DNA from: Alphaproteobacteria bacterium
Lineage (GTDB): Bacteria; Pseudomonadota; Alphaproteobacteria; JANQMY01
Assembly: GCA_028279895.1 (NCBI GenBank)
Contig: JANQMY010000357.1
Span: 1-52,351 of the forward strand
Direction of reading: 5' to 3'
Length of the DNA stretch: 52,351 nucleotides
Part shown: positions 22,076-23,731 of the stretch, one piece after another
Layout: each line of letters starts with the position of its first letter
Numbering within the stretch: the stretch's first letter is position 1
Made by a program: the position numbers and the translations under genes
The notes under the pieces: model-generated
Told to the model about the DNA's origin: nothing
Database searches by the model: none
Seen by the model: the letters and a program-made list of their open reading frames with translations, nothing else

Positions 22076-23731
22076 ATGCCCCTGATGTTAGAGAAAAGTG
22101 AAACCCACAAAGCAAGCCGCGCAGTGATTTATGCGCGTGTATCCTCCACCAAGCAAACCACACGCGGGGATGGCCTGAACTCACAAATTACGCGCTGCCG
22201 TGAATACGCCAAATACAAGGGCTATGAGATCGTAGAGGTCTTCCAGGATGATAGCTCCGGCTCCTTGACCGAGCGCCCTGGCATGCAGGCGCTTTTGAAG
22301 TTTCTTCGCTCTAAACGAAGCGATCCCCATGTCGTTATTATTGATGATATCAGCCGCCTCGCGCGCGGCATTGAAGCGCATCTTGCGTTGCGCTCTGCCA
22401 TTAGCGGCGCGGGCGGCTTATTAGAAAGCCCCTCCATTGAGTTTGGAGAAGACTCCGACTCTCAGCTTGTCGAGAACCTGCTTGCCGCTGTCTCCCAGCA
22501 TCAACGCCAGAAGAACGGTGAGCAGACAAAAAACCGCATGATCGCCCGCGCCTCAAACGGCTATTGGGTGTTTCATGCGCCTCTGGGCTACAAGTTCGAA
22601 AAAGTGGGCGGGCATTCAAAACTACTGGTGCGACATGAGCCAATGGCCTCAGCCATCCGGCAAGCCCTAGAGGGCTTCGCATCAGGCCGGTTTGAAACCC
22701 AGGCCGAGGTTCTAAGATTTTTTGAATCGCTGCCGCATTTTCCAAGAGACTCTCGCGGTATCATTCGGCATCAACGCATAAGAGACATTCTCACCAATCC
22801 GATCTATGCCGGTATGGTTGAAATACCCAATTGGAATATCCCGCGCCGCGAAGGGCATCATGAAGCACTGATCTCTTATCAGGACTTTCTCAAAATACAG
22901 GAGCGTCTCACCAACAAAGCGAAAGTGCCGGTGCGCAAGAATGTCGCTGAGGACTTTCCGCTCCGCGGCTTTGTCACCTGCGGTGATTGTGGAACCATTC
23001 TGACCTCCTGTTGGGCCAAGGGCCGCACACGTAAGTATCCCTATTATCATTGCCCCACCAAAGGCTGTGAGAGCTACGGCAAATCTATACGCCGGGACGT
23101 GCTAGAGGGTGAGTTTGAAGCGCTGCTGGGCCAGCTCAGCCCCTCCCGTAATCTCTATGAGATTGCCTACTCCATGTTCAAAGACGCTTGGGACCAACAG
23201 CTCACATTCCTCAAGGCGCAAATCCAGGAAATGGAGAAGAAAAGATCTGAGCTGGATGCTCAAATCACCCAGCTCCTCGACCGGATCGTTCAGGCGACCA
23301 GCAACGCTGTCATAAGCGCCTATGAGAGCCGTATCCAGCAACTGGAGGCTGATAAGCTATTGCTTGAAGAGAAAATCAAAAGTGCAGGCAAACCGCAAAA
23401 GCCCTTTGAAGAGTCTTTTAGAACCGCTATGCAGTTCCTCTCAAACCCAGCAAAACTCTGGCATTCAGGCAATCTAGGCCACAAGAAAACGGTCCTCAAA
23501 CTGACCTTTGCCGACCGTCTTCCTTACACCCGCAATAAGGGATTTAGAACCGCCCGGCCAAGCCTGCCTTTCCAGGTAATTCAAGAGCTTAAGGAGAGTT
23601 TGGAAGGCGATTTTGCTTCCAAAGGTAATATGGCGCGCCGGGGAAGATTCGAACTCCCGACCCCCAGATTCGTAGTCTGGTGCTCTATCCAGCTGAGCTA
23701 CCGGCGCTTGGTTTGCCGTCTCGGTCTATGA
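22076..23731 (+). CDS. large serine recombinase (integrase); last about 33 codons run antisense through tRNA-Arg
   Basis: YARVSS catalytic motif, DDISRLAR, recombinase domain (NPIYAG), Zn ribbon CGDCG..YYHC..C, coiled coil. Confidence 0.93.
   Translation: MPLMLEKSETHKASRAVIYARVSSTKQTTRGDGLNSQITRCREYAKYKGYEIVEVFQDDSSGSLTERPGMQALLKFLRSKRSDPHVVIIDDISRLARGIEAHLALRSAISGAGGLLESPSIEFGEDSDSQLVENLLAAVSQHQRQKNGEQTKNRMIARASNGYWVFHAPLGYKFEKVGGHSKLLVRHEPMASAIRQALEGFASGRFETQAEVLRFFESLPHFPRDSRGIIRHQRIRDILTNPIYAGMVEIPNWNIPRREGHHEALISYQDFLKIQERLTNKAKVPVRKNVAEDFPLRGFVTCGDCGTILTSCWAKGRTRKYPYYHCPTKGCESYGKSIRRDVLEGEFEALLGQLSPSRNLYEIAYSMFKDAWDQQLTFLKAQIQEMEKKRSELDAQITQLLDRIVQATSNAVISAYESRIQQLEADKLLLEEKIKSAGKPQKPFEESFRTAMQFLSNPAKLWHSGNLGHKKTVLKLTFADRLPYTRNKGFRTARPSLPFQVIQELKESLEGDFASKGNMARRGRFELPTPRFVVWCSIQLSYRRLVCRLGL
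23631..23707 (-). tRNA. tRNA-Arg(ACG)
   Basis: Reverse complement GCGCCGGTAGCTCAGCTGGATAGAGCACCAGACTACGAATCTGGGGGTCGGGAGTTCGAATCTTCCCCGGCGCGCCA, 77 nt, anticodon ACG, encoded CCA. Confidence 0.97.

Follow-up and report, generated by a model that had tools for sequence, protein, structure and literature searches.

A Large Serine Recombinase That Reads into a tRNA Gene and Probably Exchanges Its C-Terminus by Recombination

The Recombinase Gene and Its Attachment Site

The stretch of DNA analyzed here (the window) is a contig of 52,351 nucleotides from an alphaproteobacterium (GenBank GCA_028279895.1, JANQMY010000357.1), and represents the whole of contig C349 in a 625-contig assembly. An open reading frame (ORF) at 22076–23731 on the + strand encodes a large serine recombinase (LSR) of 551 amino acids, which runs through an attachment (att) site into an adjoining tRNA-Arg gene at the edge of a genomic island. 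Our analysis supports, as very likely, a swapped and functional C-terminus in this enzyme: the circular form of the island would encode an LSR with a conserved tail, which integration would remove.

The presence of a Resolvase domain (PF00239, 2.8e-26, residues 16–163), a Recombinase domain (PF07508, 9e-07, residues 226–280), and a Zn_ribbon_recom domain (PF13408, 5.8e-09, residues 295–349), the last two both above the curated Pfam cut-offs, identifies the ORF as a large serine recombinase. The translation contains the string VIYARVSSTKQ, which we take to be the serine nucleophile motif. Among NCBIfam models, the protein matches XisF (99.7 bits; cut-off 375) and CcrB (73.8 bits; cut-off 900), in both cases far below the cut-off.

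The LSR frame has no stop before the att core, and codon 519 onward is read antisense through the tRNA gene, as a first-pass annotation of this DNA had claimed; its coordinates and translations hold. Codons 1–518, the last of which read KGN, are encoded by the element. From there the frame passes through the core (ATGGCGCGCC) into the antisense strand of tRNA-Arg(ACG), where a chance TGA ends it 33 codons on, so that codons 519–551 consist of att core and tRNA antisense and the translation ends in KGNMARRGRFELPTPRFVVWCSIQLSYRRLVCRLGL. Codon 519 starts the run ATG GCG CGC at 23630, and its ATG (23630–23632) overlaps the antisense of the tRNA CCA. The core at this right junction (attR), TGGCGCGCC at 23631–23639 (+), is the antisense of the last 9 nt of the tRNA (ending GGCGCGCCA); the T of the TGG in the core is codon position 2 of Met-519. 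The T-loop antisense, TTCGAA, lies within the tRNA gene (the B′ arm) at 23648–23653 (+), 17 nt from that T. With the att core located inside the integrase ORF, the integrated and free forms would encode different C-termini.

The tRNA-Arg(ACG) gene (23631–23707, − strand) is the sole tRNA found in the window by ARAGORN and is the integration target, its 3′ end being regenerated by the element. Guanine-plus-cytosine (GC) content steps from about 0.45 on the island side to about 0.6 exactly at 23630, the 3′ end of this tRNA (0.42–0.54 from the window start to 23630; 0.55–0.66 from 24001 on). In a complete genome of the same genus (G303), the same tRNA-Arg is followed directly by unrelated host sequence without an island, a configuration that represents the unoccupied site; in G158, the other genome of the genus, a text search did not locate the start of the tRNA, and the empty site is cited from G303 alone. 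The low-GC island (176–23639, +) measures about 23.5 kb from the first, or about 22.1 kb from the second, of two further core copies at its left end.

Including these, TGGCGCGCC occurs at 176, 1536, and 23631, always on the + strand. The count of this 9-mer by itself is within chance (three found, 1.64 expected; at least three in 22 of 100 shuffles), and the case therefore rests on the GC step, the empty site in G303, matches to a profile of tails, and the offset of a hexamer from the core. At copy 1 the core (176–184) leads into an in-frame tail, MAR-PEGETSNQVWDELEVWQRYMDING and a stop (175–258, +; profile E value 7.5e-14), with TTCGAA at 198–203, 22 nt from the T of TGG. At copy 2 the core (1536–1544) leads into LAR-LDDKTLNRCWEELENWDQQLCPFD and a stop (1535–1618, +; E value 1.3e-11), and the hexamer, again 22 nt from the T, reads TTTGAA (1558–1563), a C-to-T change in the T-loop-like motif. 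A TAA directly upstream of copy 2 (1532–1534) means that no LSR remnant precedes its tail. In the LSR register the two copies read MARPEGETSNQVWDELEVWQRYMDING and LARLDDKTLNRCWEELENWDQQLCPFD, each followed by a stop and each in a frame of exactly 27 codons; the earlier statement that both stand in that register with peptides of identical length is thus borne out by the sequence. Both window tails are among the nine sequences from which the profile was built, so they match it partly by construction.

The contig starts in the end of an insertion sequence (1–166, +), the first 165 bp or so of which recur at nine other places in the genome. This insertion sequence stops about 10 bp left of core copy 1 and so truncates that junction on its host side. 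No sequence joining the far left of the island to host DNA was recovered: the host sequence to the left of the G303 tRNA has its only match, of 317 bp, in C257, a 2.2-kb contig that stops short of a core. It is conceivable, then, that neither left copy is the partner of the right junction; the island would in that case extend past the contig start to its true left end, and the copies would be relics that older, related elements left behind. The insertion sequence at the contig start, the presence of two copies separated by 1.36 kb that include a SoFic gene, and the failure to find the G303 host flank beside either copy would all fit such relics. We consider this unlikely, since both copies share the exact 9-nt core with attR, lie at a distance (22–23.5 kb) typical of the 5.5–39 kb seen elsewhere, and have a W-[DE]-E-L variant of the tail in common. 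Even as relics the copies would keep the same arrangement, so the general conclusion would stand.

A Family of Recombinases Reading into tRNA Genes

Of 8000 proteins scored in a search of 5.8 billion, 2512 are homologs of the LSR at E ≤ 1e-20. As judged by eye, most of the 120 homologs listed (54–76% identical) end in x-M-A-[H/R] followed by a tRNA-antisense peptide, for example RGRFELPTPRFVVWCSIQLSY and PRGFEPLTSAFGGQRSIQLSYG, and homolog lengths scatter from 471 to 700 amino acids. The annotated C-termini of the database entries P0002–P0120 are largely tRNA-antisense read-through.

LSR homologs are present in 27 of 401 genomes of the same class, and ARAGORN places a tRNA gene against the LSR 3′ end in 26 of 29 loci. 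The targets comprise tRNAs for Arg (four anticodons), Ser (three anticodons), Ala, Val, Phe, Leu, Tyr, Glu, and Thr. A gene that reads through its att core into a tRNA is thereby confirmed as a trait of the family. A second island of about 30.5 kb is found in the same genome as the window (G000:C80:6485-37071; L010, L099) at tRNA-Ala(GGC). Its LSR, a paralog of 523 amino acids with 42% identity, runs into tRNA-Ala(GGC), and the island has its own tail, MVE-LDEQSSNQLFETLADWNATLNAEGIDPGELST and a stop.

Conserved Tails at the Far Ends of Islands

The first-pass annotation had proposed that a tail of this kind be sought at cognate island ends and among homolog C-termini. Up to 80 kb of sequence upstream of 24 further LSRs was searched, for repeats of tRNA 3′ ends first and then in six frames with the nine-tail profile, the profile search covering 26 island sequences. 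A conserved in-frame tail was recovered in 13 of the 26, always on the LSR strand and 5.5–39 kb upstream of the LSR; where the full 80 kb of upstream sequence was available, it was found in eight islands of eight. Five islands outside the profile match at E values of 2.5e-12 to 8.3e-8, which constitutes independent support. An exact-prefix search had missed five islands with shorter or mutated cores that the profile search recovered.

The T of TGG is the second codon base in every LSR and in every tail frame, so that recombination within the core would join LSR and tail in frame. The tail consensus is [M/L/V]-A/V-x-L-E-G-E-T-S-N-x-L-F-E-T-L-x-[DE]-W-N-x-x-L, and most tails end in [E/G]-P-x-P before the stop. 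A pattern scan of one genome per species identified 144 tail-encoding stretches, distributed among Alpha- and Gammaproteobacteria, Burkholderiales, Nitrospirales, and others. Afifella marina DSM 2698, Devosia limi DSM 17137, and Methylorubrum rhodinum DSM 2163 are among the genomes with tails. All 80 of the genome loci with a tail that were kept are of the attL type, without similarity to an LSR upstream in frame; this is the pattern expected of integrated elements.

Two Layers of Conservation and the Geometry of the att Sites

Codon use was compared among 13 tails from 12 islands, the tail of G327b being left out on account of a two-residue insertion; as the sequences are related, the counts are descriptive and carry no formal test. 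Within tail codons 11–23, 458, 312, and 654 differences fall at codon positions 1, 2, and 3, respectively, and the ratio of nonsynonymous to synonymous differences (pN/pS) is 0.54 in the LSR frame versus 0.81 and 1.90 when the frame is shifted. Invariant residues are encoded in several ways: Leu-16 by five codons, Leu-23 by six, and Thr-15 by four. The excess at third positions and the varied codons for invariant residues indicate selection on the protein in the tail helix, and point to an amphipathic helix, starting at codon 11, that is under selection as protein. A codon-position bias among homologous ends, which the earlier annotation had made a check of its proposal, is therefore present.

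Closer to the core the conservation extends to third positions. Codon 9 is TCG in all ten of the 13 tails with Ser there, codon 10 is AAC in all 13, and codon 6 is GGA in eight of the nine tails with Gly. The heptamer TTCGAAC, antisense to the tRNA T-loop, starts 22 nt from the T of TGG in 12 of 13 left junctions, the hexamer in the tRNA itself standing at 17; both left copies of the window have the T-loop-like hexamer at offset 22, as do ten other attL sites. These sequences are most simply explained if codons 8–10 are fixed at the DNA level and roughly the first ten tail codons overlap the P′ half-site of attP. The reading of the shared T-x-N and W-[DE]-E-L-E-x-W residues as protein-level conservation consequently stands for the W-[DE]-E-L-E-x-W helix, where the codon-position bias is seen; the T/S-x-N part is better assigned to the attP half-site as DNA.

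The third-position conservation of the first ten codons (TCG, AAC, and GGA) and the fixed offset of the T-loop-like motif are what would be expected if the whole stretch to the right of the left cores were conserved only as DNA, as the P′ arm of attP, with an incidental reading frame. This explanation is extremely unlikely for the stretch as a whole. More than about 30 bp from the core, third positions are the most variable, the invariant Leu, Thr, and Phe residues use two to six synonymous codons, and pN/pS is lowest in the LSR frame; the frame also reaches the conserved P-x-P and stop at least 100 bp from the core, far past the extent described for the attP half-site of LI integrase (PMC3783163).

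According to Rutherford et al. (PMC3783163), a motif for the zinc-ribbon domain of serine integrases is present in both sites and lies 5 bp nearer the center in attB; in the LI attP half-site, the zinc-ribbon-domain motif ends at position 24. The offsets observed here, 22 at the left junctions and 17 in the tRNA, show the same relation, the distal motif being 5 bp nearer the center in attB. That this distal motif is the near-universal T-loop may explain how the family moves between tRNAs. The blocks of identity between attL and attR usually span offsets 0–8 (0–5 in G110 and G195; 2–8 in G127) and overlap only at offsets 2–5. If a single position is used throughout the family, the crossover would thus fall within offsets 2–5 from the T of TGG, that is, at the discriminator base and the top of the acceptor stem.

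Occurrence of the Joined Gene

The tail profile gave 511 matches at E ≤ 1e-3 in 1.84 billion representative proteins, the best 150 of the 511 being 35–346 amino acids long. An LSR C-terminal region running into a tail was found in P0199, P0127, P0153, P0174, P0158, P0147, P0135, P0142, P0125, P0128, P0130, and P0132, and P0123, from an earlier search, likewise joins an LSR C-terminus to a tail. P0199 is the longest joined ORF (346 amino acids), extending from the recombinase domain to RMVG-LDDESLNSLFQEMARWNTLLKD and beyond. These partial metagenome ORFs indicate that the P-core-P′ junction occurs in nature.

Among the 20 matches whose sequences were inspected there are also bare tails of 35–39 amino acids that had been called as small ORFs (P0180 and P0182), and 12 of 13 attL sites have ATG, TTG, or GTG as the codon at the junction. 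Such calls would be expected if the tail were a separate small gene at the left junction, starting at the xTG of the core and forming no part of the LSR. We regard a separate gene as very unlikely: no consistent ribosome-binding site is apparent by eye before the junction in the 13 attL contexts, the junction codon in G127 is CAA, the register is always that of the LSR frame, natural ORFs join the LSR C-terminus to the tail, and an xTG follows simply from the CCA end of the tRNA.

A word-based search of longer proteins with the tail profile returned four matches, the longest of 154 amino acids, and the tail region of P0127 matched none of the longer proteins. Among plasmids one weak record was found, among phages only Wolbachia WO at 27% identity, and in IMG/VR two loci, neither in the attP form. 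In three coral-metagenome runs compared with positions 20000–26000, a stretch that excludes the left copies and on which a joint could have appeared only as a loose end, no joint and no loose end from the LSR side was seen, a result that is uninformative on excision. The attR form is contiguous in the coral-metagenome contigs, one of which spans 20000–23659, and loose ends at 23629–23631 and 23701–23710 come from other organisms with the same tRNA (depth 223–1714, versus 4–8 beside them).

Predicted Structure of the Tail

P0199, which is 48% identical over 297 amino acids to residues 208–503 of the window LSR, was modeled with AlphaFold2 from a 98-row alignment, and the coiled coil of the family was read from this model. 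The model (mean predicted local distance difference test score, or pLDDT, 85.7) has two long helices (154–202 and 206–232) that form the coiled coil looked for in a large serine recombinase, followed by a helical subdomain (240–302). When the body (residues 1–304) and the tail (305–346) were supplied as two chains, the complex score was 0.61 (runs of 0.67, 0.60, and 0.61), and none of three controls exceeded 0.00; at least 69% of contacts are common to the runs, with a partner pLDDT of at least 65. Tail residues L319, F320, M323, W326, L329, and L330 touch F164, W168, and R171 at the base of the first coiled-coil helix, and the same tail face touches residues 243–250, 256–272, and 292–300 of the subdomain behind the coiled coil; the aligned residues in the window LSR are F368, W372, and 447–454 (SFRTAMQF). 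The tail helix is thus modeled as packing on the post-coiled-coil helical subdomain and the base of the first coiled-coil helix, and the structure prediction that the earlier annotation had suggested yields, at the level of a model, a specific docking site.

This site can be compared with the integrase of SPbeta. In a preprint on cryo-electron microscopy structures, an essential C-terminal helix of the recombination directionality factor (RDF) is described between the second DNA-binding domain and the inter-hinge segment of the coiled coil, and the excisive complexes were solved with the RDF fused to the integrase C-terminus by a flexible linker (PMC11722253). The natural tail resembles that fusion in architecture, with a flexible linker and an amphipathic helix at the base of the coiled coil.

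The model would suit a purely structural role equally well. As a cap without regulatory function, the tail would pack on the hydrophobic post-coiled-coil surface for folding or stability, completing the C-terminal subdomain, and its loss on integration would weaken or destabilize the enzyme and lock the island in place, as in Mx8, leaving direction unchanged. The replacement tails also vary widely, as the 471–700-residue homologs show, which implies no common function for them. We hold a structural cap to be possible, if on the unlikely side. An integrated element still needs a recombinase to excise, yet no other integrase, of the tyrosine type, is present on C349 (PF00589 has seven matches elsewhere in the genome); moreover, the family has a wide distribution and related genomes differ in the islands they contain, which suggests continuing mobility of integrated copies that encode the tail-less form.

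Several observations weigh against the exchange of a functional tail. The tail was not found in 13 of 26 islands, where the upstream sequence covered 4.5–40 kb, and in G118 none was seen within 40 kb. No circle junction was seen for the window element or its relatives, nor was a full-length LSR-tail ORF (about 550 amino acids). The absence of the full-length ORF is weak evidence, as integrated forms may represent the 50% clusters to which such ORFs belong. No LSR-tail joint occurs in the 80 genome loci, and the joined metagenome ORFs need not derive from circles, since tandem arrays or remnants could also give rise to them. In the P0199 monomer the tail helix (313–331) has a pLDDT of only about 68–74, and the linker (303–312) about 52. 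The complex score is the model's own confidence, and although 0.61 was reached in calibration by 58 of 80 solved complexes and two of 110 mismatched pairs, these counts are only a rough guide, since the alignment was supplied. No tails in the set are shorter or more divergent than those of the window, in which the P-x-P end is missing and W-[DE]-E-L takes the place of L-F-E-T-L. Together with the arm of copy 1 cut by the insertion sequence and the C-to-T change in copy 2, such short divergent tails suggest that the window element may be impaired, copy 1 perhaps being no longer excisable.

A Model for the Exchange

The exchange of a functional tail nonetheless remains the reading we prefer, and it would operate as follows. 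The LSR would integrate the island at the 3′ end of tRNA-Arg(ACG), with attP inside the 3′ end of its own gene. Excision would join the LSR 3′ end to the tail at the left end, which would be the true C-terminus in the circle, as comparison among islands strongly suggests; integration would remove the tail and leave tRNA-antisense codons in its place. The state of recombination would in this way toggle between a tailed form (circle, attP × attB) and a tail-less form (integrated, attL × attR). The contrast drawn by the first-pass annotation, between a circular form with an acidic amphipathic tail and an integrated form with a tRNA-antisense tail, accordingly finds support in the comparative evidence, the excised form being inferred.

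A partner that might read the difference between the two forms is encoded next to the LSR. An acidic ORF of 96 amino acids (ORF96; 21752–22042, +), 33 bp upstream of the LSR, contains the motif DLTEEQKxELLxxLWxIxxxFVxLGF, and in 17 of 25 other islands tblastn matches it in the corresponding place before the LSR; it belongs to no Pfam or NCBIfam family. ORF96 is a candidate RDF or regulator of the LSR, and its position suggests that it is probably co-expressed with the LSR. If that co-expression is real, regulated supply of an RDF could not by itself set direction, which would, speculatively, leave a role for the tail swap. A likeness between the tail helix and the conserved helix of ORF96 was considered and dropped, as the spacing differs by eye (LLxxLW in ORF96, LFxxLxxW in the tail). 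Just upstream of the ORF96-LSR pair is a small second serine recombinase (21075–21566, +; 163 amino acids, Resolvase 5.2e-50); a relative (55% identical) is found near only one other LSR (G066), and it is thus not a feature of the family.

More tentatively, the tail may be a built-in directionality element of a self-toggling integrase that is widespread in Proteobacteria and aimed at universal features of tRNAs, a proposal that leans on the docking model and that we consider doubtful. The tail helix would occupy the groove at the base of the coiled coil used by a directionality factor, and hold the enzyme in an integration-competent state despite the presence of ORF96. Integration would cut the tail off and expose the site, giving an excision-competent enzyme, so that direction would be set by the state of the DNA and not by RDF expression.

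Island Content

The island encodes a MobA/VirD2-like relaxase (10711–12075, −), a NikA-like protein (12072–12416, −), and a TraG/VirD4-type coupling protein (15920–17860, +). No type IV secretion components were found among the island ORFs scanned, the left end of the island being cut by the contig start. The combination of relaxase, NikA-like protein, and coupling protein indicates that the element is most likely mobilizable, and the island is most likely an integrative mobilizable element (IME) of at least 22 kb.

The cargo consists mostly of defense genes, with SoFic, a Pycsar-type PycTM effector, and PD-Lambda-5_A, plus a PemK/MazF-like toxin. The SoFic-type Fic-domain protein (255–1343, +; PADLOC 1.1e-45) is encoded alone between core copies 1 and 2, and the stretch between the copies resembles a small cassette flanked by att sites, or what remains of a second, related element. 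A T-loop-like sequence, GATTCGAACC at 1420–1440 (+), stands some 100 bp to the left of core copy 2 without an adjacent core; it may be left over from another att site or be part of a tRNA.

The PycTM-type effector, with two transmembrane segments (2077–2568, −; PADLOC 3.9e-23; PF18967), is divergent from an ORF of 1126 amino acids (2663–6043, +) that has only a weak phosphoribosyltransferase match. No cyclase partner was recognized beside the effector, and the two genes may form an atypical Pycsar-like pair. A homolog of PD-Lambda-5_A (12707–14077, +; 4.9e-88) overlaps an ORF at 14032–14928 (+) with a weak HEPN match; the two ORFs (12707–14928) are probably a PD-Lambda-5 defense pair carried as island cargo. 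The PemK/MazF-like toxin ORF (6285–6677, −; Pfam 7.6e-12) overlaps an ORF on the opposite strand (6192–6671).

Significance and Comparison with Known Systems

For the one-way insertion of large DNA, the main tools are large serine integrases, and how their direction is controlled is a question of active structural study. The family described here is a large natural group of LSRs aimed at the 3′ ends of many tRNA genes, and its targeting is explained by sequence, the distal half-site motif being the T-loop, copied 5 bp further out in attP. Its conserved C-terminal helix appears to be attached and detached by recombination itself, and is modeled where directionality factors act; should direction or stability turn out to depend on the presence of the tail, this would be a new and very compact principle of control. 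The family could supply integrases for sites in nearly every bacterium. In addition, for thousands of proteins annotated as "recombinase family protein", the C-terminus is an artefact of the integrated state, read from tRNA antisense, and would mislead alignments and structure predictions.

Full-text searches of a literature in which subscription journals and supplements are thinly covered gave no account of a serine integrase with a conserved tail swapped by recombination, or of this tRNA-targeting family. A database paper of 2015 states that no serine recombinases were known to specify tRNA genes (PMC4383910). A 2017 review of IMEs presents those with serine recombinases as Firmicutes elements that insert within genes and have no known RDF; five IMEs and one integrative and conjugative element with serine recombinases are given in a further study (PMC8627217). 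The word "tRNA" does not occur in the available portion of Durrant et al. (2022).

The integrases of LI/A118, phiC31, Bxb1, and SPbeta share with the family the resolvase, recombinase, and zinc-ribbon domains, the coiled coil, and the 5-bp shift of the motif between attB and attP. In contrast, their attP lies outside the gene, their C-terminus is fixed, and use of tRNA genes is not recorded for them. The serine recombinase of phiRSM (ORF14) uses a 13-nt core that repeats, in reverse orientation, the 3′ end of tRNA-Ser(UCG) (PMC3816273); unlike the LSR, it is a small resolvase-like enzyme, and its attP lies between ORF14 and ORF15, outside the gene. A minority of tycheposons use serine recombinases at tRNA genes, and overlap of gene and att site is not mentioned in the sections available.

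Integration of SSV1 splits the integrase gene of this virus into two parts. The SSV1 (Fuselloviridae) integrase gene extends across attP (PMC4383910), and in Myxococcus phage Mx8 attP lies inside int, integration giving a new 3′ end and an altered protein (PMC6070905; PMC4383910); the earlier annotation's account of both as integrases that span attP agrees with these sources. Mx8 is alike in that attP lies within the integrase coding sequence and the C-terminus changes on integration. Both differ from the window LSR in being tyrosine recombinases, that of SSV1 from an archaeal virus and that of Mx8 without the logic of a coiled coil and RDF site, and Mx8 is one phage as against a family of thousands.

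The closest serine-recombinase precedent found is DsiB of Dehalococcoides, where the gene and the att site overlap at the tmRNA (transfer-messenger RNA) gene ssrA, and where full function in the circle only was floated (McMurdie et al. 2011; PMC3146451). The C-terminal parts of dsiB are described there as divergent in length and sequence, and a functional role was thought unlikely (PMC3146451). The dsiB target is a tmRNA gene in Chloroflexi and its tails are divergent, whereas in the present family the tail is conserved as protein, with many tRNA targets and several phyla represented, and is predicted to dock on the body of the recombinase.

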